Virus record (IMG/VR): IMGVR_UViG_2734482779_000004
Span: 1 to 27,850 of that record
Reading direction: 5' to 3' (one strand)
Length of the DNA stretch: 27,850 nt
Origin: a virus
Lineage: Duplodnaviria; Heunggongvirae; Uroviricota; Caudoviricetes
Part shown: piece after piece, positions 11,725-27,850 of the stretch
How the letters are laid out: every line of letters begins with the position of its first letter
How positions within the stretch are numbered: position 1 is the stretch's first letter
Translations under genes and position numbers: made by a program
The notes under the pieces: generated by a model
Told to the model about the DNA's origin: nothing
Seen by the model: the letters and a program-made list of their open reading frames with translations, nothing else
Database searches by the model: none

Positions 11725-12197
11725 ACCTCAATCTCTCTGACCGTTCCGCCAGACTCTTTGAATTTTGCAATCAGGTTGTCAGCCTTATGCTCGAACTGAC
11801 CGTAACCAGCCCCCGGCAGTGAAGCCCAGATATTGCTGCAACGATCGATAGCCTGACGGATATCACCGCGATCAATCATCGGTAAAGCGCCACGCTCTTT
11901 AATCTGCTGCAATGCCACAGCGTCCTGGCTTTTTGGAGAGAAGTCTTTCAGGCCAAGCTGCTTGCGGTAGGCATCCCACCAACGGGAAAGAAGCTGATAG
12001 CGCCCGGCTGCTGTTGATTTGAGTTTTGGGTTTAGCGTGACAAGTTTGCGAGGGTGATCGGAGTAATCAGTGAATAGCTCTCCGCCAACAATGACGTCAT
12101 AACCATGATTTCTGGTTTTCTGCCGTCCGTTATCAGTTCCCTCTGACCACGCCAGCATATCGAGGAACGCCTTACGTTGATTATTGATTTCCACCAT
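11721..12197 (-). CDS. R: Endolysin, lambda R-type lytic transglycosylase
   Basis: 158 aa, nearly identical by recall to lambda R ([51 protein letters not shown]...). Confidence 0.95.
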
Positions 12198-12504
12198 CTT
12201 CTACTCCGGCTTTTTTAGCAGCGAAGCGTTTGATAAGCGAACCAATCGAGTCAGTACCGATGTAGCCGATGAACACGCTCGTTATATAAGCGAGATTGCT
12301 ACTTAGTCCGGCGAAGTCGAGAAGGTCACGAATGAACCAGGCGATAATGGCGCACATCGTTGCGTCGATTACTGTTTTTGTAAACGCACCGCCATTATAT
12401 CTGCCGCGAAGGTACGCCATTGCAAACGCAAGGATTGCCCCGATGCCTTGTTCCTTTGCCGCGAGAATGGCGGCTAACAGGTCATGTTTTTCTGGCATCT
12501 TCAT
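12181..12504 (-). CDS. S: Holin/antiholin, lambda S-type
   Basis: 107 aa beginning [22 protein letters not shown], the lambda S dual-start motif (Met1 antiholin, Met3 holin), with three TM segments. Confidence 0.95.
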
Positions 12505-12746
12505 GTCTTACCCCCAATAAGGGGATTTGCTCTATTTAATTAGTAATAAGGTCGATTACTGATAGAACAAATCCAGGCTACTGTGTTTAGTAATCAGATT
12601 TGTTCGTGACCGATATGCACGGGCAAAACGGCAGGAGGTTGTTAGCGCGACCTCCTGCCACCCGCTTTCACGAAGATCATGTGTAGAAGGCCGCAGCGTA
12701 ACTATCACTGATGAATTCAGGATAGCCAGTGGCTACGGCTCAGTTA

Positions 12747-12822
12747 TGGTGCTGGTTAACGGACTTGAACCGCTACCCATTCGCTTACAAGGCGACTGCT
12801 CTACCATTGGAGCTAAACCAGC
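12747..12822 (-). tRNA. tRNA-Thr (anticodon UGU)
   Basis: Hand-folded 76-nt cloverleaf on the minus strand: acceptor GCTGGTT/AACCAGC, D-stem GCTC/GAGC, anticodon loop CTTGTAA, T-arm AGCGG-TTCAAGT-CCGTT, discriminator A plus encoded CCA. Confidence 0.75.
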
Positions 12823-12827
12823 ATGTT

Positions 12828-12902
12828 TGGCGGGACAGCGTGGGCTCGAACCACGATAAGAAGGTTAACAGCCTTCCGTAATGACCTTTATACGACTGAC
12901 CC
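12828..12902 (-). tRNA. tRNA-Asn (anticodon GUU), slightly atypical
   Basis: 75-nt cloverleaf: anticodon arm GAAGG-CTGTTAA-CCTTC (loop identical to E. coli tRNA-Asn), T-arm CGTGG-TTCGAGC-CCACG, encoded CCA. The acceptor stem has one T-T mismatch and the D-stem is weak. Confidence 0.55.
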
Positions 12903-12965
12903 AAATAAAAAAAGCCACCGTTGCAACTTAAGAGTCACTAACGGCAGCTTACCTTCTAATTATGG

Positions 12966-13484
12966 CTAAATGGATAATTGCATGTCAAGGCTTTTAACAG
13001 CAACATGCTTAACTTTCTCAACACGTTTACGCATTTTGAAAGCATTTTGCATTGGCTGGTACAAAACAAATAACGACGCTTTCAGGATGTCGTCAATTTC
13101 GTTTCTACAGGTTGCCAGTGAAGGTTTTCTACATCCCTCGCCACCACGTCCACACATCTTGCGTGGCTTTGCAGTCGCGTGATAGTAGGATGCAATTGCT
13201 CGCTTAGATGAACCATGAGCGTAGTAGCTGAGGAGGATGCCAAAGGCTTTCTTGTCAATGTACATGACGGAATCGACGACCTGAGAAATCAACATTCCAT
13301 CATCATCATTACACATTGGCCTTGTCATAACTCTTCCCGGCTCTACGCTCTCCATGAACTTAGCTATTACGCTGCTCATGCGCTTTTCCAGACGACCTGA
13401 ATAAACCCATGCTCCCCACAGTTCAAGCCAGCCATTCAGCCACTCGTGCTGCTCTTTGGTGAGGTTTAGTTCTCTTATGCTCAT
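12966..13484 (-). CDS. Late-gene antiterminator Q (non-lambda Q type)
   Basis: 172 aa in the Q position (downstream of ninH, upstream of the lysis cassette) with a Cys-rich putative zinc motif CGRGGEGCRKPSLATC. Confidence 0.7.
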   Translation of the reverse strand: MSIRELNLTKEQHEWLNGWLELWGAWVYSGRLEKRMSSVIAKFMESVEPGRVMTRPMCNDDDGMLISQVVDSVMYIDKKAFGILLSYYAHGSSKRAIASYYHATAKPRKMCGRGGEGCRKPSLATCRNEIDDILKASLFVLYQPMQNAFKMRKRVEKVKHVAVKSLDMQLSI

Positions 13485-13669
13485 CGTCTTCCCCTCTTGC
13501 CCTGTTTGACCATCAGGACGCCGTTAACTATTACGTGACGCTCACCTTTGCTGTCTCGGTTGTACTTGAGCACTGTTCCTCTTGCACAGGAAAGCATCCT
13601 CGCCACTTCGGTCTGATTGCCTCGTGTCTGGATAAGAAGCTCTGGTATCGTTTGAATTGTGGCGTTCAT
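13481..13669 (-). CDS. ninH: NinH-like small DNA-binding protein
   Basis: 62 aa. TIPELL..T.GNQTEVARML.C.R.TV.KY....G.RH.IVNGVLMV resembles lambda NinH. The ATG overlaps the rusA stop (ATGA). Confidence 0.65.
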   Translation of the reverse strand: MNATIQTIPELLIQTRGNQTEVARMLSCARGTVLKYNRDSKGERHVIVNGVLMVKQGKRGRR

Positions 13670-14028
13670 GCGTTCTCCAGTTCGGTGATTTTTATTCCAA
13701 GCCTTCCGCCTGGAACTTTCACGCCACGAATTACGCGAATGTCATCGAATTGCTCGTCATCTTACGCAAATCCGGCGTGGATAAGGGAGTCGAGTAAACC
13801 TTTCAGGATGTTGTCGAGGTCGCGGCGGCGGGAGTCTGGAACGTCTGCGATGACTTTGATGCGGAGTCGTGATTTGGTGAAAATATCTAACTTGAGTTGG
13901 TGGATGATTTGCTGGACGTCTTTTCGGTATTTCTGGCCTTTATCGCTTATGTAATATTGGCTTCCCCGTCTTCGCCAGTAGGTATTCACCGACGGCGGGT
14001 ATGGAAGCACAAACTGATATTCGTTCAT
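13666..14028 (-). pseudogene. rusA: rusA Holliday-junction resolvase interrupted by an in-frame TAA at codon 89
   Basis: The 88-aa ORF (MNEYQFVLPYPPSVNTYW...DSRRRDLDN...HAGFA) ends at TAA (13762-13764); the same frame continues DDEQFDDIRVIRGVKVPGGRLGIKITELENA to a TGA overlapping the ninH start. Total is 120 codons, the RusA length. Confidence 0.75.
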
Positions 14029-14315
14029 GACTTAATCTTCCCCTCCCTCAGCAGTATCGCCTGCGTTCTGATCACGCCTTCGAGGTGGTAAAGTCTGGCG
14101 TCTTTGTTGTCGAGATTATGGGTGCGTCGGTCGATTTCATCGTGACACGCACTACAAGCCCATGCACCGATCAGGTCGTCAGGCTTCATTCCCGTTCCGC
14201 AAATTCCAGCCATCCGGTAATGTGCCAGAACTGTAGTTTCAGGGTTGCCATTGCATACGCCGTAAATACGTACCTGGCATTCTCTGCCGCGCGCTTCTTT
14301 GCGTAGGTTAGCCAT
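14025..14315 (-). CDS. YbcO-like (DUF1364) putative zinc-binding nuclease
   Basis: 96 aa with Cys/His cluster (C..C, CSACHDEID) and position immediately upstream of rusA, as ybcO is in DLP12-type nin regions. Confidence 0.6.
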   Translation of the reverse strand: MANLRKEARGRECQVRIYGVCNGNPETTVLAHYRMAGICGTGMKPDDLIGAWACSACHDEIDRRTHNLDNKDARLYHLEGVIRTQAILLREGKIKS

Positions 14316-15037
14316 TAAGCAGCCTCCCCTGTTACTTTCAGCATTCCGTTATCGAGCAGCTTTCTGGTCAGCCACTGTTGACCACGCCCGGTGATTTTTG
14401 TGGTGAACGATATCTGTATTCCGTGATTTGTGTTGAACGCTGTTTCTTTCACTGTGAAATAGCCGCGATCCATATATTCCTGCATTGGCACATTGCGCCA
14501 GGAACCTGAAGCAATAAGGATTTTGTGATCGCGCATCCACGCAAACAGTTTGTTTGGACCAATTCCAACAACCTTTGCAAAGTTTCCAATCAAAATTCCG
14601 CTGGCCTCGCCAACGCGATCGGCAAACTCAACTTTAGGTGCGGCAATTGCGAGCTGGTTTTCCAGTTGCATTTTCTGCTCAGCAAGGTCAGCAGCAAGGC
14701 GCAACGCTTCCGGTAGAGTTTTGGGGATATTAACCGCAGCGTCTTCAAGTTCTCGCCAGCGGTCAACAAGGCGAGCGGTGAATTCCGGCGACAACTGGGC
14801 TACAACAACAATACTATCTCGCTTACCTTGTTCGCCTTCGAATACGTAATGCTCGTACTGAACATTGAATCCTAAGTTATTGATTCTTTCGGAAACCTCA
14901 ATTTGAGGAAGCCGGATAACACCATTTTTAGCCAGCGTTTCGATGGTACGTTTCACATTGTCATTACGCTTACCAACCAACTCAGCGATTTCAATGCTTG
15001 TCATTTTGATGGCATTGCCATTTATTAACTCATTCAT
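14315..15037 (-). CDS. Rha-family regulatory protein / antirepressor-like
   Basis: 240 aa; N-terminal Rha-type region (MTSIEIAELVGKRNDNVKRTIETL) and a C-terminal Ant/KilAC-like region. Confidence 0.7.
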   Translation of the reverse strand: MNELINGNAIKMTSIEIAELVGKRNDNVKRTIETLAKNGVIRLPQIEVSERINNLGFNVQYEHYVFEGEQGKRDSIVVVAQLSPEFTARLVDRWRELEDAAVNIPKTLPEALRLAADLAEQKMQLENQLAIAAPKVEFADRVGEASGILIGNFAKVVGIGPNKLFAWMRDHKILIASGSWRNVPMQEYMDRGYFTVKETAFNTNHGIQISFTTKITGRGQQWLTRKLLDNGMLKVTGEAA

Positions 15038-15198
15038 CGTCTTCTTCCTCGTACATTGAGCTATTCGGATCGCTCATCAGTTCTGCGCAGCAATCGGAGC
15101 ACACGTGAACTTCCAGCACATGCAACTTCTGACCGCAATTAGCGCACGTTAAAGCCCGCTAGACGCTTTCTTTCTGGTATTGAAGGGATTGTGATGGG

Positions 15199-15546
15199 CT
15201 AAGCATTATTAGCGTCCTGCATCAGGAGAAAGACAATCATGGCGGCGCGGAGAGGTCTGGTATCAAATATTGGGCTTACGCCATTTGCATCCACACACCA
15301 TTCAGTTAACTGGTCTAAGATAGAAATCCTGTGTTTCTCAATAATCGGCCATGAGGCACTCGGATCATTGCAGTAGTCAGGTAAAGGGTTTAATGGCTCA
15401 AAAGTTGTATCAGCATTTCCGTAATACCATTTGTTGGTGTTATTCCCTGACGTTTCCGGTTTACATGCCCAAAGGCCTTTAAAAATTATGTCTCCTACCA
15501 TTCTGTTAATTTCAAAATCACTTAACTGTGAATAATCCATTGTCAT
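15199..15546 (-). CDS. Phage protein (DUF2591-like); start reassigned to an internal ATG
   Basis: The ORF track gives 127 aa from 15582. The ATG at 15546 ([14 protein letters not shown]...) overlaps the ninE stop as ATGA, so it is the likelier start (115 aa). Confidence 0.5.
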
Positions 15547-15719
15547 TTCCTCGCACGATGTCTTAGCCACCGGATATCCCACAGGTGAGCCGTGTAGTTG
15601 AAGGTTTTTACGTCAGATTCTTTTGGGATTGGCTTGCGTTTATTTCTGGAGCGTTTCGTTGGAAGGTATTTGCAGTTTTCGCAGATGATGTCGGTGATAC
15701 TTCGTCGCTGTCGTCTCAT
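15543..15719 (-). CDS. ninE: NinE
   Basis: 58-aa ORF below the track's length cut-off: [58 protein letters not shown]. Its ATG overlaps the ninB stop and its stop overlaps the next gene's ATG. Confidence 0.7.
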
Positions 15720-16126
15720 TCGTACCTCCTGTCGGTAAATCTGACACCCTGACCAATAGCCCAGGCTGTTGTGTACTCGATCAGACTTGCCATGCGCTTC
15801 ACGCTCATCTGCGCGCTGCTTTCGCGAATGTTGACGTATTCGCCTTCAAGGCCGGGCAAAACATCAGCTTCCTGCTTTGTTGCCACTGCATGACCGCTGA
15901 TCAACAAAACCTTCCATTGTTCTGGTTTTAACCATTTATCGCACCATTGAACCTGACGAGCGATATCCGCCAGCATCGCGTGAAATTTTGCGTTCTGGTC
16001 AAGATTTCGCTTGTAGTCAGTAATGCGGATTGTGACTGGCTTGTCTTTATCGAGTGGTGTTGAGAGGATGGCATTTATTGCGGCTTGCTGTTGTTGCTTA
16101 CTTCGGAGGAAGATTGTTTGCTTCAT
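15716..16126 (-). CDS. ninB: NinB (recombination protein, Orf family)
   Basis: 136 aa. ...[30 protein letters not shown] matches lambda NinB (RSLDQNRKLWACLGDVSRQVEWHGRWLDAESWK). Confidence 0.85.
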
Positions 16127-16128
16127 CG

Positions 16129-16434
16129 TTACTCCTTCACTTTGATTCCAGATGCGCGGAGAATTTCGATAATTTCTCGAGATTCAAAACATGGGACAGC
16201 ACCGGCCCAGAACTTTGTGCTCGGAAGTGTTATCTCAGGTTTGTTTCGCTCCATCTTACTTATGATTTCTGCTGCACAATCGTGAGCCTCCCTAAAACTC
16301 CTAGCCTGCCGAAGAAAGTCTTCGCTCCTATCCCTTTCAGCCTCCAGGTCTCTGCGACAATTTCTAAGCTCCAATTCAAGCTCACATATACGCTTTCTTG
16401 ATTCGTCCATATCAATCCCCGTTAGTCGTTTCAC
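16129..16434 (-). CDS. Hypothetical nin-region protein
   Basis: 101-aa ORF, same orientation, packed against ninB. Confidence 0.4.
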   Translation of the reverse strand: MKRLTGIDMDESRKRICELELELRNCRRDLEAERDRSEDFLRQARSFREAHDCAAEIISKMERNKPEITLPSTKFWAGAVPCFESREIIEILRASGIKVKE

Positions 16435-16633
16435 TCACGAATCTGACAAAACCAGCCATGTTAATTTGCATGAGTTTTTTCAACACTTTGTCTCGCCGGC
16501 TACGTTTTGGTTTTGGCCTGTGGTTGAATCTTTCACAAACTGGAAGGTTTGATGATTTCCAGTACCTATTACGCCTTGCTCCATCTTCCGCCATATCGGC
16601 ATGAATAAGGTCTGCGAGTGTGCTCATATTCAC
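16412..16633 (-). CDS. Hypothetical nin-region protein
   Basis: 73-aa basic ORF overlapping the next gene's start by 23 nt. Confidence 0.3.
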   Translation of the reverse strand: MNMSTLADLIHADMAEDGARRNRYWKSSNLPVCERFNHRPKPKRSRRDKVLKKLMQINMAGFVRFVSETTNGD

Positions 16634-16641
16634 CTCTCCAG

Positions 16642-16824
16642 TTACATTGGTTTTGTAATGTTGCTAGTCATCTTGCGAATAAAAAGATGCGTACGTAGCT
16701 TTGCTTCCCACATGTAAATCTCCTCAAGGCGAGATAAATCTACGAATACCGGACCTTTGTAATCTGGTCTTGATGCCCTTATGTATGAGCTAATAGTTTG
16801 TGCATCTTGCTCGTCAAGATTCAT
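16642..16824 (-). CDS. Hypothetical nin-region protein
   Basis: 60-aa ORF in the same gene chain. Confidence 0.3.
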   Translation of the reverse strand: MNLDEQDAQTISSYIRASRPDYKGPVFVDLSRLEEIYMWEAKLRTHLFIRKMTSNITKPM

Positions 16825-17017
16825 GACTTCCCTCTCTAACAGATTTCAGGTTATTCCACTCCGTTACCGCACTGCGATAATTCGCGGCCGCCACAGCGGC
16901 GTGGTTAGCGCAGTAGATTTGGCACCCGTTCTCCATGTCGAATATTGTCGGTGATTTTCCGCATTTACATTTTTTGGCACGCGGTGCGTCTGAACACATT
17001 CCGTTAACGGTGTCCAT
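16814..17017 (-). CDS. Hypothetical Cys-rich small protein
   Basis: 67 aa with C-x-C and several further cysteines (KKCKCGK...CQIYCANH); first gene after the tR2-like terminator. Confidence 0.35.
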   Translation of the reverse strand: MDTVNGMCSDAPRAKKCKCGKSPTIFDMENGCQIYCANHAAVAAANYRSAVTEWNNLKSVREGSHES

Positions 17018-17046
17018 CAGGATCCCCCTCGTTCTTAATCCAATAA

Positions 17047-17081
17047 AAAAGGGCTACTGTGTAAATAGCCCCTGTTATTAG
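17047..17081 (-). terminator. Rho-independent terminator (tR2-like) between the replication genes and the nin region
   Basis: Minus strand GGGCTA-TTTACACAG-TAGCCC hairpin followed by TTTTTTATT. Confidence 0.55.
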
Positions 17082-17098
17082 CTCAGTGATGTAGATGG

Positions 17099-17389
17099 TC
17101 ATTGCCTTACCTCCATAAGCGCCCTATTAATAAACGCCGTCATTGGATTTGCACATCCCCACCCCTTACCATCTGGATTTCTTTTAATTGGCTCCTTCTT
17201 CACTTTGCGTTTTGCATAAATAACCGTCTTCCACTTACGCTCAACAACACTCAAATGTCCTTGTTTCACCATATGCCTTGCTGCTTGAGCGATTCTGTTA
17301 TTTTGTATTCCGGTGATCAGTGCTAATTCATGTGGGGAGAATTGTTCATGAGTTTTCAGATATTCCAGGATGATTTCTTTTCCAGTCAC
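17099..17389 (-). CDS. Hypothetical HTH-containing protein
   Basis: 96 aa with HTH-like segment (FSPHELALITGIQNNRIAQAARHMVKQG); overlaps the loader gene stop by 4 nt. Confidence 0.45.
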   Translation of the reverse strand: MTGKEIILEYLKTHEQFSPHELALITGIQNNRIAQAARHMVKQGHLSVVERKWKTVIYAKRKVKKEPIKRNPDGKGWGCANPMTAFINRALMEVRQ

Positions 17390-18231
17390 GATCTGCTCCT
17401 GTAACTATCCCATGTAAACGCAAGAGTGCACCCGCCGCCATCATTCATCCTGTCAATAACACGCTCACCAATGAATGCAGACAGTTCATCTTTGCTCTGG
17501 TTGCTAATCAGGATTGTTGGCTTCATGCGCTCGTAGCGGGTGTTGATGATTTCGAACATGATCATCTTTTCCGCCTCGCTTCCAAACTGCACACCAACCT
17601 CATCGATAATTAGCAGGTCAGGTTTAGTGAACTGTCGGATCACTTCATCCTCTGTGCGGGTGGAGTTTTTCGACCATGTTGATTTATATTCTCTGGCAAT
17701 TTTCAGCGCCGTTGTGAAAATAGCTGAGCTTTGATGTTCCGTAATTGCGTGCCGGGCGATAGCCAGTGCAAGATGATTCTTTCCAGTACCAGGCTTTCCA
17801 CACATAACCAGCCCACCGCCTTTCTGTAACCTCTCAGGCCATTTGCTGGCGTATGCCTGACACACCCTGAGCACTCTCTTTGCATCGTCGTTGACTGGCT
17901 CGTAGTTCTGTAGTGTGCAACCCTTGAATCGTTCAGGAATATCAAGATTATTCAACAGAAACTCGACATTGCGCTTACGTGATTCTTCGTCGATTTTAAT
18001 CTTCTCTGCCTGTAGCCGAATAAGCTCATCTCTCATGCATTCCGGGCATTCGCTAGGTCTTGAGGCAAACTTAATTGGCCCAGTCGAGTAACGGTTACGC
18101 TGCTCAAACTCACCATGTTTTTCACAGATGCCAGTGCCAATTTCTACAGCTGTATGCTCGATAGCAATTGGCGGAGAACTCAATTCTGCAAGTTTTTTCT
18201 CCAGTTGGGAGATCTTTTCATCCAGCGTCAT
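17386..18231 (-). CDS. Replication helicase loader, DnaC/IstB-like AAA+ ATPase
   Basis: Walker A (CGKPGTGKNHLA) and Walker B (LLIIDEVG). Likely start is the second ATG at 18231, which has AGGAG 6 nt upstream (the track ORF starts at 18249). Confidence 0.85.
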   Translation of the reverse strand: MTLDEKISQLEKKLAELSSPPIAIEHTAVEIGTGICEKHGEFEQRNRYSTGPIKFASRPSECPECMRDELIRLQAEKIKIDEESRKRNVEFLLNNLDIPERFKGCTLQNYEPVNDDAKRVLRVCQAYASKWPERLQKGGGLVMCGKPGTGKNHLALAIARHAITEHQSSAIFTTALKIAREYKSTWSKNSTRTEDEVIRQFTKPDLLIIDEVGVQFGSEAEKMIMFEIINTRYERMKPTILISNQSKDELSAFIGERVIDRMNDGGGCTLAFTWDSYRSRS

Positions 18232-18233
18232 GT

Positions 18234-19076
18234 TCACTCCTGCGCCCATGAAGGCATTTCAGTTTGTCCGTAATCTTTGGTGGCAAAGTTTTCCTGCATA
18301 GCTCGATGCTGCGGCCTCGGTTGAGATTTCCCCTTTGGAGTCTTGGGCTCAAAAATCCCCTGCCAACCACTGGCGATGCTCTGGTTTATAATTTCTTCAG
18401 GTGTATATCCCTTCTCCAGACTTCTGCTTAGAACGTTGATAGCCTGAGTGACACTTTGCTTAGACTTGATCGACTTACCTATCTCCTTGCGATAGGTAAC
18501 CCACGACAACCATGTTTCTGCTGATAACCAATCAGGCAACTCTGTTTCTAGCGGGTCGAACTTCTGAGAAACTTTTTTGGGGGATATAGGGGGTTTATTA
18601 ATATTTTCTTTTGTCTTTAAAGAATGTCTTTTGTGTGTCTCTAACTTCGAGACATTGAGTGTCTCTAATTTGGAGACATTTTTTGTCTCTAACTTCGAGA
18701 CAAAGTTGCTAACTTGGAGACACTTGCTGAATTGCCACGCAGATACCTCACTGTTTACACCGATTTGATTTCCATCCATAAACAGGCAATTCATTGAAAT
18801 CAGTTCTTTTTTAGCCTTGTTAACATTCTGCCTTGACAGTCCTGTTAACTGAGCAATTTGCTCATCGGCTATTCGATCTGTTTTCTTATTGAATCCATAT
18901 GTTTTCCGGACGTAGGCCAGCATAACTTTCAACTGGCGAGCGGTTAAATCGGCACTTGCGATAGCTTCCAGCAGCTCGTTAGCGAATCTGGTGTAACCAT
19001 CATCGATATCAGCCACTCTTCGCTCCTGTTCAACAGGTTCACTCTTCGGCAGGTAAAATACTTCAGCAAGGCTCAT
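18234..19076 (-). CDS. O: Replication initiator, lambda O-like
   Basis: N-terminal region (ERRVADIDDGYTRFANELLEAIASADLTARQLKVMLAYVRKTYGFNK) resembles the lambda O DNA-binding domain. The track ORF starts at a TTG (19109); ATG at 19076 has GGAGG 7 nt upstream. Contains the ori iterons. Confidence 0.8.
   Translation of the reverse strand: MSLAEVFYLPKSEPVEQERRVADIDDGYTRFANELLEAIASADLTARQLKVMLAYVRKTYGFNKKTDRIADEQIAQLTGLSRQNVNKAKKELISMNCLFMDGNQIGVNSEVSAWQFSKCLQVSNFVSKLETKNVSKLETLNVSKLETHKRHSLKTKENINKPPISPKKVSQKFDPLETELPDWLSAETWLSWVTYRKEIGKSIKSKQSVTQAINVLSRSLEKGYTPEEIINQSIASGWQGIFEPKTPKGKSQPRPQHRAMQENFATKDYGQTEMPSWAQE
18590..18721. repeat. Replication origin inside the O gene: four 17-bp iterons plus an adjacent AT-rich region
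   Basis: GTCTCTAACTTCGAGAC (18636-18652), GTCTCTAATTTGGAGAC (18661-18677), GTCTCTAACTTCGAGAC (18685-18701), degenerate GTTGCTAACTTGGAGAC (18705-18721), spaced 20-25 bp, with AT-rich 18590-18635. Same layout as lambda ori. Confidence 0.7.
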
Positions 19077-19707
19077 TTCCAACCTCCGCATCAAAGCATT
19101 GGGCTTCAAGAGACTTAACCATCACCACACTGCCATCTGTATTAATAACTATCGATGAGTTATATTTGCTTATCAGTTGCTTCGCGTAATCAATTCCGGC
19201 GCGAATAAGGAAATTTTTCACCGCAGGAAGATGACCAACTACACTACCCAGACCTTGCTCTATAAGCTCCTCATTAAGATCAAGCTCATTTTCATGGCGA
19301 AAAGAAATGAATGAGTCGTAAATTGCGTATTCTGCCGTCTCGCCATTTCTTTCAGGGCCAACCAGCGCCCTTATTTCATTTAGAGATTCAGAAAGATCAT
19401 TATCTTCAAGCTTGAAAAACTCTCGATTATCACTAAGCCTCTCTTTTGCAAAGGCTTTATGAATGAGTTTTTCATCTGATGCGGGATTATTTGAATGAAA
19501 GGCTGCTATCACCTTAAATGGCTTAGGAACGCCAGTAGAGGCTGAAATTTCTTTAGCCCTAACTTCTGGTGAATGCTTAGTCATCCCAATCTTATAAATT
19601 CCTGGCATGCACTCATTCGAAAGCACATAAACAAAGCCATTTGATTTAAAATCATCTGGAACCTTCATGCTCTTCAGAACCTGGAATTTGTCATTTTCGT
19701 ATGTCAT
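19063..19707 (-). CDS. T5orf172 / GIY-YIG-like domain protein inserted between cII and O
   Basis: 214 aa, ATG with AGGAG 6 nt upstream. N-terminal FVYVLSNECMPGIYKIGMTKHSPEVRAKEI...FKVIAAFHS fits the T5orf172/MUG113 pattern; the C-terminal ~100 aa are not recognised. Confidence 0.6.
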   Translation of the reverse strand: MTYENDKFQVLKSMKVPDDFKSNGFVYVLSNECMPGIYKIGMTKHSPEVRAKEISASTGVPKPFKVIAAFHSNNPASDEKLIHKAFAKERLSDNREFFKLEDNDLSESLNEIRALVGPERNGETAEYAIYDSFISFRHENELDLNEELIEQGLGSVVGHLPAVKNFLIRAGIDYAKQLISKYNSSIVINTDGSVVMVKSLEAQCFDAEVGNEPC

Positions 19708-19717
19708 AATTACTCCT

Positions 19718-19796
19718 GTGGATTGATCCAGTAATGACCTCAGAACTCCATCTGGATTTGATCAGAACGCTCGGTTGCCGCCGGGCGTTTTTTATT
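19718..19796 (+). ncRNA. oop: oop antisense RNA with its terminator
   Basis: Plus strand GTGGATTGATCCAGTAATGACCTCAGAACTCCATCTGGATTTGATCAGAACGCTCGGTTGCCGCCGGGCGTTTTTTATT is near-identical by recall to lambda oop. Overlaps the cII 3' end antisense; a CATAAT -10 lies at 19705-19710. Confidence 0.7.
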
Positions 19797-20033
19797 GGTG
19801 AGAATCGAAGCAACTTGTCGTGCCAATCGAGCCATATCGTCGTCAACGACGCCCCATTCAAGAACAGCAAGCAGCATTGAGAACTTTGGAATCCAGTCCC
19901 TCTTCCACCTGCTGATCTGCGACTTATCAACTCCCACAGCTTCCGCTGTCTTCTCAGTTCCAAGCATTGCGATTTTGTTAAGCAACGCACTCTCGATTCG
20001 TAGAGCCTCGTTGCGTTTGTTTGCACGAACCAT
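19740..20033 (-). CDS. cII: Transcriptional activator cII
   Basis: 97 aa from the internal ATG, MVRANKRNEALRIESALLNKIAMLGTEKTAEAVGVDKSQISRWKRDWIPKFSMLLAVLEWGVVDDDMARLARQVASILTNKKRPAATERSDQIQMEF, essentially lambda cII. The track's 117-aa ORF is a 5' over-extension. Confidence 0.95.
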   Translation of the reverse strand: MVRANKRNEALRIESALLNKIAMLGTEKTAEAVGVDKSQISRWKRDWIPKFSMLLAVLEWGVVDDDMARLARQVASILTNKKRPAATERSDQIQMEF

Positions 20034-20112
20034 ATGTAAGTATTTCCTTAGATAACAATTGATTGAATGTATGCAAATAAATGCATACACCATAGGTGTG
20101 GTTTAATTTGAT

Positions 20113-20144
20113 GCCCTTTTTCAGGGCTGGGATGTGTAAGAGCG
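20113..20144 (-). promoter_or_regulatory. nutR (boxA and boxB)
   Basis: Minus strand reads CGCTCTTA (boxA) then GCCCTGAAAAAGGGC (boxB hairpin), matching lambda nutR, between cro and cII. Confidence 0.8.
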
Positions 20145-20152
20145 GGAATGTC

Positions 20153-20368
20153 TTAAGCGGCTTTGTGTTCCGGCGGGAACACGTCATCAAGACTGACTTT
20201 TGCGCCTAACTTGTTTAGGCACTCAACAAGAGCACGGCATGTTTTAAGGTCTGGGAAGCGACGACCAGATTCCCAATGTCCGATAGCTCCCTGTGTGCAT
20301 CCAACTGCCTTAGCAAGTGTTGTTTGAGAGATATTCAGTGACTCTCGATATTTTCGTAGGTTGCTCAT
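20153..20368 (-). CDS. cro: Cro-like repressor (XRE-family HTH), non-lambda immunity
   Basis: 71 aa from the ATG at 20368, which has GGAGGG 4 nt upstream. HTH ISQTTLAKAVGCTQGAIGHWESG. The track's 128-aa ORF is an over-extension. Confidence 0.75.
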   Translation of the reverse strand: MSNLRKYRESLNISQTTLAKAVGCTQGAIGHWESGRRFPDLKTCRALVECLNKLGAKVSLDDVFPPEHKAA

Positions 20369-20394
20369 ATGCCCTCCATAGTAACCATGAAACA

Positions 20395-20468
20395 ATAATA
20401 CGATATGTACTTTTAGAATGCAAACAAAAAATACATCTTGTGCATGGATGGTTTTAGTACAGAGCGTA
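20395..20468. promoter_or_regulatory. OR region: pR and three candidate operator sites
   Basis: Minus strand pR: -35 TTGCAT (20418-20423), 17-bp spacer, -10 TATTAT (20395-20400). Candidate 11-bp TAC-N5-GT sites at 20399-20409, 20432-20442 and 20458-20468, spaced 33 and 26 bp. Confidence 0.45.
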
Positions 20469-20485
20469 ATAATAAGGGTATGAAA

Positions 20486-21139
20486 ATGAAATGGTATGAA
20501 CTGGCTAGATCCAGAATGAAAGAGCTCGGCATAACTCAAGAGAAGTTAGCTGAAGAGCTTGGTATGACGCAGGGTGGAATTGGTCACTGGTTGCGCGGAT
20601 CTCGTCATCCATCTCTTGACGAGATTGGTGTGGTGTTTAAATACCTTGGTATTGATAACGTCTCATTCAACCACGACGGTACATTTTCACCTGTTGGCGA
20701 ATACTCATCTGCCCCCGTTAAAAAACAATATGAGTACCCTGTTTTTTCTCATGTTCAGGCCGGGATGTTCTCGCCTGAGCTTAGAACCTTTACCAAAGGT
20801 GATGCGGAGAGATGGGTCAGCACAACCAAAAAAGCCAGTGATTGTGCGTTCTGGCTTGAAGTTGAAGGTAATTCCATGACCGCGCCAACAGGATCCAAGC
20901 CAAGCTTTCCTGACGGGATGTTAATTCTCGTTGACCCTGAGCAGGCTGTTGAGCCAGGTGATTTCTGCATAGCCAGACTTGGTGGTGACGAGTTTACATT
21001 CAAGAAACTGATCAGGGATAGCGGTCAGGTGTTCCTACAGCCACTAAACCCGCAATATCCAATGATTCCATGCAATGATAGCTGTTCCGTAGTAGGGAAA
21101 GTTATCGCCAGCCAGTGGCCTGAAGAGACATTTAGTTAA
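20486..21139 (+). CDS. cI: CI repressor (HTH plus LexA-like S24 autocleavage domain), non-lambda immunity
   Basis: [26 protein letters not shown]; C-terminal S24-type domain with [10 protein letters not shown] and FTFKKL. Start is ambiguous between ATG 20480 and 20486; 20486 has better SD spacing. Confidence 0.85.
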
Positions 21140-21170
21140 CAGCCTCACCACTCTAAAACACACAACAATA

Positions 21171-21199
21171 ACCCGACCTTAGCGTCGGGTTTTCTTTTT
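21171..21199 (+). terminator. Rho-independent terminator after cI
   Basis: ACCCGAC-CTTAGC-GTCGGGT hairpin followed by TTTCTTTTT, about 30 nt after the cI stop. Confidence 0.6.
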
Positions 21200-21220
21200 C
21201 CAAAATATAAACCCATTAAA

Positions 21221-21293
21221 TACAAAGCGTTATAAAAAACTAATTATATTTAGAACATTTTGTATTGACTCGATAAAGTACAAATCGTACTAT
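21221..21293 (+). promoter_or_regulatory. OL/pL: promoter and three candidate operator sites
   Basis: pL: -35 TTGACT (21265-21270), 17-bp spacer, -10 TACTAT (21288-21293). Repeated 11-mers TACAAAGCGTT (21221-21231), TACAAAATGTT (reverse, 21254-21264) and TACAAATCGTA (21279-21289), spaced 33 and 25 bp. Confidence 0.5.
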
Positions 21294-21332
21294 TTAGCCA
21301 TCGGCAGGACGCACTGACCACCATGAAGGTGA

Positions 21333-21363
21333 CGCTCTTAAAAATTAAGCCCTGAAGAAGGGC
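21333..21363 (+). promoter_or_regulatory. nutL (boxA and boxB)
   Basis: CGCTCTTA (21333-21340) and GCCCTGAAGAAGGGC (21349-21363), matching lambda nutL. Confidence 0.85.
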
Positions 21364-21535
21364 AGCATTCAAAGCAGAAGGCTTTGGGGTGTGGTGAAGG
21401 GTTCATGGATGGGAATATGTCGCACGTAAAGCGGCGAGGCCTGCGGAACTATTGCCGAATTGAAGTCGGCCGAAGCAGGTCGAAATGGGTCTCCCACCTA
21501 CCACACCACCAAAGCTAACTGACAGGAGAATCCAG

Positions 21536-22433
<898 letters not shown>

Positions 22434-23311: not shown

Positions 23312-24216
23312 GCAATATCGTTGAATTCGTTAAACAGCAGGAGCAGTTATTCTGCGGAGCATTGACTGAACAGACGGTGACATGGGCTAAGGAAAGCCAG
23401 TTTGCAATTCAGTATTTCCAGAAAAACGATTACCTGGCTAAAACAGCACTGGCAAATCCAACCAGCGCACAGAACGCCATCATCAATGTTGCGGCGATCG
23501 GCATCACCTTAAACCCGGCCAGCAAACTGGCTTATCTGGTTCCGCGCGACGGCATGGTGTGCCTTGATATCAGTTATATGGGATTGCTCCATATTGCAAT
23601 GGAGTCTGGTGTTATCTCATGGGGTCAGGCAAAACTTGTTCATGCTAACGATACCTATGAGTCAAACGGGCTTGATAAAGCACCAACCCATAAATACAAC
23701 GCCTTCGGTGATCGTGGTGATATCGTTGGCGTTTACTGCACAGTTAAGACGCCAGCAGGTGATTATCTAACGGAAGAGATGAGTCTGGCTGAAATTGAGG
23801 CTGTAAGGAAAACAAGCAAGGCGGCCTTCAGCGATAAAGGACCATGGGTAAATCACTGGAATGAGATGGCGCGAAAGACGGTCGTAAAGCGTGCAAGCAA
23901 GTATTGGCCTAAGGCATCACGTCTTGATAGTGCTATTCACGTACTAAACGAAGAAGAAGGTGTGTGGACTGAACCAGTTATGCCGCACAAATCAGAGGAA
24001 GATATCCGCGAAGATGAACGGAAACGCCAGCAGGAAATAACGGATAAAGCACAACTTCTTTGTGATGAAATGGCTCAGGCTGAAAACATGGATGACCTTA
24101 AGCGCATCTTCGCTAATGCCTACAGGCTCACACATGGTATGAAGCTGCAACAAAACGTCCAGGCAGTCTACATGGAATGTAAAGAAAAAATAGAGATTCG
24201 GCATGAAAGCGTCTGA
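23308..24216 (+). CDS. recT: RecT-family single-strand annealing recombinase
   Basis: 302 aa; the region LAYLVPRDG...LDISYMGLLHIA...GDIVGVYCTVKTPAGD fits the RecT family as remembered from Rac RecT-type proteins. Confidence 0.8.
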   Translation: MSNIVEFVKQQEQLFCGALTEQTVTWAKESQFAIQYFQKNDYLAKTALANPTSAQNAIINVAAIGITLNPASKLAYLVPRDGMVCLDISYMGLLHIAMESGVISWGQAKLVHANDTYESNGLDKAPTHKYNAFGDRGDIVGVYCTVKTPAGDYLTEEMSLAEIEAVRKTSKAAFSDKGPWVNHWNEMARKTVVKRASKYWPKASRLDSAIHVLNEEEGVWTEPVMPHKSEEDIREDERKRQQEITDKAQLLCDEMAQAENMDDLKRIFANAYRLTHGMKLQQNVQAVYMECKEKIEIRHESV

Positions 24217-24670
24217 ATTGTTTCGTTATGAAGATGGATTGCTTTTTTGGCGGATTAAGCCAGCACGATGGATGAGGGCTGGTGATAAGGCAGGAGGAAA
24301 AACAAAATCTGGCCATTGCATTGTAAGCATTAACGGAAAAAGAGAATACGTGCATAGGGTTGTATGGGAAATTCACCACGGTGAAATTCCAGAAGGGATG
24401 GTAATAGACCATATCAATGGAAACCCGAGTGATAACCGAATAGAAAACCTTAGGTGCGTCTCTCAGCAAATAAATCTTCTGAACAAGAGAAAACAGAAAA
24501 ATAACACATCTGGCATTACTGGAGTTGGGTTTCACAAGCAAAGAGGAAAATGGAGAGCCACATTCATGAATGAGTATCTTGGGTCGTTTGGTAGCTTTGT
24601 CGACGCCTGCGAGGCAAGGATAGTTGCTGAGGTTTCTTCTGGGATCTCCACTGAGAGGAATGGCAAATGA
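24203..24670 (+). CDS. HNH homing endonuclease (HNH_3 with AP2-like domain)
   Basis: 155 aa. YVHRVVWEIHHGEIPEGMVIDHINGNPSDNRIENLRCVSQQIN is the HNH_3 signature; SGITGVGFHKQRGKWRA is AP2-like. Confidence 0.8.
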   Translation: MKASELFRYEDGLLFWRIKPARWMRAGDKAGGKTKSGHCIVSINGKREYVHRVVWEIHHGEIPEGMVIDHINGNPSDNRIENLRCVSQQINLLNKRKQKNNTSGITGVGFHKQRGKWRATFMNEYLGSFGSFVDACEARIVAEVSSGISTERNGK

Positions 24671-27649: not shown

Positions 27650-27850
27650 ATGCAACACGAACTACAGCCTGATTCACTGGTTGATTTGAAATTCATCATG
27701 GCTGATACTGGCTTCGGTAAGACCTTCATCTATGACCGGATTAAGTCCGGCGACCTGCCTAAAGCCAAAGTTATCCACGGACGAGCAAGATGGTTATATC
27801 GTGACCATTGTGAATTCAAAAATAAGCTCTTAAGCCGCGCCAATGGGTAA
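27650..27850 (+). CDS. xis: Excisionase / AlpA-family DNA-binding protein
   Basis: 66 aa, ...GDLPKAKVIHGRARWLYRDHCEF, the AlpA/Xis-type winged-helix pattern, at the int-proximal end of the early-left operon. The integrase and att site would lie beyond the window. Confidence 0.6.
   Translation: MQHELQPDSLVDLKFIMADTGFGKTFIYDRIKSGDLPKAKVIHGRARWLYRDHCEFKNKLLSRANG

Follow-up and report, generated by a model that had tools for sequence, protein, structure and literature searches.

A rusA pseudogene in a P22-like prophage, probably due to a recent nonsense mutation

The rusA gene of the prophage described here is interrupted by a single TAA codon. We consider it very likely to be a recent null allele, restricted to the prophage of one E. 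coli strain, which arose by a single G:C>T:A transversion that changed codon 89 from GAA (Glu) to TAA. The gene is one base away from intact orthologues, the stop codon has a private distribution, and the frame is otherwise undamaged, as in a simple nonsense pseudogene. The gene family is well known, and the lesion has the features of an ordinary pseudogene made by a recent nonsense change. A preliminary description of the sequence had offered three options. The first one, a recent inactivating mutation, is favoured by our results. The second, a sequencing error, is disfavoured by the presence of the same base in two assemblies, and the third, read-through, receives no positive support.

The DNA analyzed, which we call the window, is the stretch of 27,850 nucleotides in IMG/VR record IMGVR_UViG_2734482779_000004. 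We identify it as a P22-like prophage (HK620/CUS-3/Sf6 type). The late genes are of the P22 type (portal, coat, gp4/gp10), and the early region is lambdoid, with cI, cro, cII, O, a DnaC-like gene, nin genes, Q, two tRNAs and lambda-type lysis genes. The source contig extends 142 bases beyond the start of the window and begins within a DUF2824 gene (window positions 1-507), which lies just past the tail-needle gene. The ejection proteins and the tailspike are on another contig, and int lies beyond position 27850: The window is part of the prophage. Two genes of the homing-endonuclease type are also found as insertions in the early regions. One of them, T5orf172/MUG113 (GIY-YIG-like; 19063-19707, minus strand), lies between cII and O, and the other, HNH_3 (24203-24670, plus strand), adjoins RecT. 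In relatives, such genes appear at other places, for example between ybcO and rusA in one of the loci compared (L021).

The interrupted frame and the distribution of the stop codon

The rusA frame is found on the minus strand (14028..13666). Its translation is MNEYQFVLPYPPSVNTYWRRRGSQYYISDKGQKYRKDVQQIIHQLKLDIFTKSRLRIKVIADVPDSRRRDLDNILKGLLDSLIHAGFA up to the internal stop and DDEQFDDIRVIRGVKVPGGRLGIKITELENA from there to the terminal stop. This corresponds to 88 codons which are still translated (13765..14028), a premature ochre codon, TAA, at codon 89 (13762..13764), 31 in-frame codons which are left untranslated (13669..13761), and a TGA: The frame has 120 codons in all. The terminal TGA and the ATG of ninH form an ATGA overlap, and another ATGA overlap joins the rusA ATG to the ybcO stop. 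The preliminary description had already reported, at these positions, a 120-codon frame intact except for one TAA at codon 89 and followed by 31 in-frame codons that end in the ninH overlap. Translation of the sequence bears this out.

The frame can be aligned without gaps to E. coli K-12 RusA (PDB 1Q8R/2H8C) over residues 1-119, with 44% identity (E=9e-26 for the PDB match). The Pfam RusA family (PF05866, cutoff 22.8 bits) matches the 88-aa product with 45.9 bits and the repaired frame with 60.9 bits. The source contig, as annotated by NCBI, has no CDS at rusA or at ninF. We have also considered an internal restart, which can be discarded: The 31 downstream codons contain no ATG, and their sole GTG (codon 103), which has no Shine-Dalgarno sequence, would start a peptide of 18 aa.

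Codon 89 is GAA (Glu) in all 28 relatives whose alignments cover the site. The original sense codon, which the preliminary description proposed to look for by alignment with intact prophage RusA, is thus identified. Since every relative has GAA, a single altered base accounts for the lesion: Position 13764 has undergone a transversion, G>T when read on the coding strand and C>A on the plus strand. The closest allele is that of E. coli MB64, with 2 differences in 421 bases, the codon 89 base being one of the two. A Logan contig (SRR3160309_1376) with only 3 differences in 1608 bases has GAA at this codon, as do CUS-3 and ST95-32.

Searches with the altered sequence agree with a private allele. 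None of the 567 E. coli complete-genome records which match a 61-mer centred on the stop has the TAA, the best ones having one mismatch. No sequence of IMG/VR, of the 185,579 GTDB species representatives or of the JGI metagenomes matches an exact 38-nt pattern with T at the altered base; when G or T is allowed at this base, at least 120 IMG/VR contigs match. The TAA allele is found solely in GCA_000797675.1, the source of the window, and in the Logan assembly of run SRR2239640. At the protein level, the 88-aa product with its stop codon is on record only in SRR2239640, two contig-end fragments aside, while the repaired 120-aa RusA has exact matches on at least 1000 contigs. These two fragments (L005 and L006), which appeared as further carriers of the TAA, were rejected: They are unrelated short wild-type contigs whose final base is the first of codon 89 (...GCGG). 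Contig ends may mimic a truncated protein in an exact-sequence look-up, a trap for any query of this type.

Other nonsense alleles of rusA are present in 2 of the 144 full-length copies in the loci we have fetched. They are S53* (TCA>TAA) and K46* (AAG>TAG), located at positions 229-588 of L102 and 3234-3593 of L048, both IMG/VR contigs, and they are independent of the allele described here. Such sporadic knockouts, about 1% of the copies (about 1.4%), fit the occasional decay of an accessory gene which is usually maintained. On the other hand, they do not fit a mechanism specific for codon 89.

Predicted effects on the protein and on the operon

In K-12 RusA, residues D70, D72, K76 and D90/D91 are critical for cleavage, and D70, D72 and D91 form the cation site (PMC1636454). 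The monomer has a four-stranded mixed sheet with two flanking helices, and the sheets make the dimer interface (PMC1636454). The 88-aa product includes R69, D70, D72, N73 and K76, and its RRRDLDNILK segment (residues 67-76) aligns column for column with the K-12 protein. The third metal-binding aspartate, D91, is absent together with D90, as the stop comes before them.

Several residues past the stop are conserved. When 24 homologues (53-88% identity) are compared, D91, Q93, D95, R101 and G108 are invariant, and F94, I97, G102, G107, R109, K113 and I114 are nearly so; position 89 varies. For a homologue with 98% identity, the AlphaFold2 model (pLDDT 89) shows strands at 3-9, 54-62, 94-101 and 109-117 and helices at 29-44 and 71-84. 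This predicted order coincides with that published for K-12 RusA, a four-stranded sheet with two helices. Strands 94-101 and 109-117 (beta3 and beta4) fall past codon 89, and the complete fold of about 120 aa would not be retained. The stop therefore entails the loss of two of the four core strands and of one of the three aspartates which bind the metal. The preliminary description had stated that the DSRRRDLDN cluster (residues 65-73) is kept and that the DDEQFDD region (residues 90-96) and the C-terminal fold are lost. This is correct, and it can be made more precise: The missing segment includes D91 and half of the beta-sheet.

Translation would stop after codon 88, and the arginine-rich loop would remain along with D70, D72 and K76. 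Judging from K-12 RusA, a protein without D91 and the two C-terminal beta-strands would not be expected to fold properly, dimerise or cleave junctions. The 88-aa RusA is very probably catalytically dead, as suggested by its sequence, the model and the K-12 enzyme; its structure and mutagenesis, at 44% identity, also suggest that the truncated protein would be a misfolded fragment. The preliminary description had considered homologues which naturally end at this point. No such 88-aa class is found: Clusters of RusA homologues with thousands of members have 117-126 aa, and the shorter entries are partial sequences or singletons.

The putative nuclease gene ybcO (DUF1364; 14025..14315, minus strand; PF07102, E=3e-44) precedes rusA, and ninH (13481..13669, minus strand; PF06322, E=2e-24) follows it, with a GGAG 5 nt upstream of its ATG. 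The last gene of the delayed-early operon is the antiterminator Q (12966..13484, minus strand; PF06530), which is intact. A strong PR'-like promoter, TTGACA-18-CATAAT, is located at 12988..12959. A pair of tRNA genes on the minus strand, tRNA-Thr(TGT) and tRNA-Asn(GTT), at 12747-12822 and 12828-12902, lies between Q and the holin gene; the same pair is found in MB64.

The stop in rusA leaves an untranslated stretch of 93 nt before ninH. A promoter and terminator scan detected no terminator-like site between this stop and Q, and the prophage has an N-like antiterminator gene. In lambda, transcription beyond cro takes place under N antitermination, and full plaque-forming ability is kept when the whole nin region is deleted (PMC10695390). 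The operon is presumed to be antiterminated by analogy with lambda. Given the GGAG of ninH, the short untranslated stretch, the lack of a terminator, the N-like gene and the lambda precedent, serious polarity on Q is probably absent and the phage should be viable. Expression of ninH and Q would be expected to persist.

The rusA gene thus lies in the nin region, which lambda can lose and still form plaques, and which is repressed in a lysogen. From these two properties, we consider the lesion as tolerated, rather than adaptive or programmed. The idea of an adaptive loss of rusA has no positive support.

The ninF mutation, private substitutions and alternative readings

A second gene of the same operon is also interrupted. 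Comparison with relatives shows that ninF (15030..15206, minus strand), 1.1 kb upstream of rusA, has a TAG (15159-15161) at codon 16, where the ancestral codon is GAG (E16*). The change on the coding strand is again G>T. In 535 bases of ninX-ninF, six relatives with an identical NinX allele differ from the window only at the ninF stop base, apart from one gap at the alignment end. A 76-base query over this stop has no exact match in any of the 855 E. coli records found. When the open frames of the relatives are compared with the window by tblastn, the only real genes which appear interrupted are rusA and ninF; all other genes are unbroken where the window is well sampled. Other stops flagged in this comparison, such as those in portal (7810) and cI (20414), lie in non-coding frames or upstream of the real start codons. 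As a separate observation, portal has a private in-frame insertion of 3 nt (6995-6997), and codes for 709 aa; the usual length among relatives is 708 aa, with 696 and 732 aa in some. The two nonsense mutations, private and of the same chemical type, indicate that one process acted twice on dispensable genes of the prophage.

We have counted private substitutions by comparison with 41 relatives, using the 14.8 kb of the window covered by at least eight of them. Nine were found: 629 G>A, 7885 G>T, 8359 A>G, 8497 G>T, 8545 G>A, 9204 G>A, 12544 G>T, and the two stops, 13764 C>A in rusA and 15161 C>A in ninF. Five of the nine (7885, 8497, 12544, 13764 and 15161) are G:C>T:A, vs 21% of the 699 singletons of the relatives (Fisher p=0.028). 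Where coverage reaches 24-31 relatives, a stretch of 6 kb, there are three private substitutions (12544, 13764 and 15161), each of this type. Earlier counts of 113 (12 relatives) and 42 (22 relatives), together with a Fisher p=0.0017, were discarded, as they were inflated by unsampled alleles. Several sites lost their private status because they are shared with closer relatives: 15125, 15138, 15192 and 15211 (near ninF), 17166 and 17304 (hyp96), and 5267 (scaffold).

These figures might be explained by a G:C>T:A-biased regime in the strain, caused by a defect of the mutY/mutM type or by oxidative damage, with both nonsense mutations as its marks. If so, the prophage would display a small part of a mutator signature extending over the whole genome. 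The excess is weak and may also be due to chance, and we regard this explanation as possible but doubtful.

The same bias bears on the possibility of an artefact: The strain would really have GAA, and the T would be an error, for example an oxidative G>T library artefact which reached the consensus. The changes in rusA and ninF are both G>T, the classical 8-oxoG artefact type, five of the nine private substitutions are of this class, and the allele is known from one strain. Nevertheless, the same base is found in the NCBI assembly and in the Logan k-mer re-assembly of SRR2239640, whose contigs pass unbroken through the rusA and ninF stops. Over 20.7 kb, the window has 100% identity to contig JUBY01000009.1 of GCA_000797675.1 (the record coordinate is the window coordinate plus 142), and the 10.3 kb covered by the SRR2239640 contigs (window 12045-14925 and 14901-22389) also match the window with 100% identity. 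This identity indicates the same strain, possibly the same data as the deposit: SRR2239640 may be the run behind GCA_000797675.1, and in this case the two assemblies are not independent. The shared base argues against an assembler or consensus error as the source of the TAA. The remaining private G>T changes lie between genes or leave the protein unaltered, like real polymorphism, and 8-oxoG artefacts of the library are found in a low fraction of the reads and do not normally appear in the consensus of an isolate assembly. A sequencing artefact at the rusA stop is unlikely.

Selection for inactivation has also been considered. The loss of RusA, and of NinF, might be favoured in the lysogen, for example if a leaky junction nuclease is harmful. 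Two of the seven private coding substitutions are nonsense, a high proportion when compared with the possible changes in the genes of the window, where stops are created by 4.4% of all substitutions and by 9.7% of those which are G:C>T:A; the independent origin of the other rusA nonsense alleles points in the same direction. However, very few changes are involved: With four coding G:C>T:A changes, at least two nonsense mutations are expected about 5% of the time, which is unusual, but not extreme. Null alleles are found in about 1.4% of the relatives, so that rusA is generally maintained. In addition, TerL and TerS have five private coding changes, every one of them synonymous. Silent changes in terminase and nonsense in nin genes fit purifying selection on an active phage which tolerates only dispensable knockouts, and this pattern is expected from purifying selection alone. 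We believe that selected inactivation is very unlikely.

The last alternative is useful decoding of the TAA, by a host ochre suppressor tRNA or by its context, with full-length RusA still being made. The 31 codons past the stop are in frame and unmutated, in agreement with this explanation, and a very recent mutation predicts the same. In contrast, the stop is conserved in no homologue among the 567 E. coli records, IMG/VR, the GTDB representatives, JGI metagenomes and the 28 relatives. Both RF1 and RF2 recognize UAA, the stop codon with the least read-through (PMC5289835); here, this least leaky codon is followed by G. The tRNAs of the prophage are Thr(TGT) and Asn(GTT), and the window contains no suppressor; an Rfam scan of the window detected nothing else, and no recoding element at the stop. 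The RNA downstream of the stop is marginally more stable than shuffled sequences (folding energy z=-1.9; 9 of 200 shuffles fold as well), and in relatives with GAA it is identical, as part of an ordinary coding sequence. No clear sign of a recoding or regulatory element at the rusA stop came from Rfam, from the promoter and terminator scan or from RNA folding. Furthermore, the ninF stop is a TAG, which would require a different or broader suppressor. Our search within the window gives no support for a programmed read-through site at codon 89, and we consider read-through extremely improbable.

We conclude that a recent nonsense mutation remains by far the most probable explanation, and that the gene should be annotated as a rusA pseudogene (E89*), neither as a short RusA nor as a recoding candidate, with ninF as a second pseudogene (E16*). 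The lysogen would be left without a back-up Holliday-junction resolvase from this prophage, and the recombination toolkit of the phage would lose the RusA nuclease. The case adds one more data point to a pattern of nonsense in accessory genes of the nin region and silent private changes in essential genes. Beyond a correct annotation it has little weight, and the weak G:C>T:A excess is the only wider lead.

Comparison with related phages and resolvases

A solved member of the family is K-12 RusA, coded by the DLP12 prophage (PDB 1Q8R/2H8C/2H8E). Its residues D70, D72, K76 and D90/D91 are found at equal positions in the window frame. The K-12 gene is intact, whereas the coding sequence in the window is broken upstream of D90/D91. 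K-12 rusA is poorly expressed until upstream insertions activate it.

In other lambdoid and P22-like genomes (L016, L018, L020 and L040), the ybcO-rusA slot of the nin region is filled by lambda Rap (NinG), which is dispensable for plaque formation. Rap belongs to a different family (PF05766), unrelated to RusA, and is analogous to it in position only.

Two IMG/VR records provide parallels to the lesion. In UViG_2558860290_000008 (S53*) and UViG_2654587728_000004 (K46*), a rusA gene with about 98% identity is also interrupted by a single-base nonsense change. Neither has a stop at codon 89: Other codons are affected, which indicates an independent origin.

The P22-like and lambdoid coliphage relatives have the same gene order, roi-ybcO-rusA-ninH-Q, with the same ATGA overlaps. 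The rus genes of HK620, CUS-3, mEpX1, HK542 and the UTI89, APEC O1 and S88 prophages are very similar to ours, with 96-98% nucleotide identity over ybcO-rusA-ninH. The rusA gene of these relatives is intact, with 120 codons, and it has GAA at codon 89, where the window has TAA.
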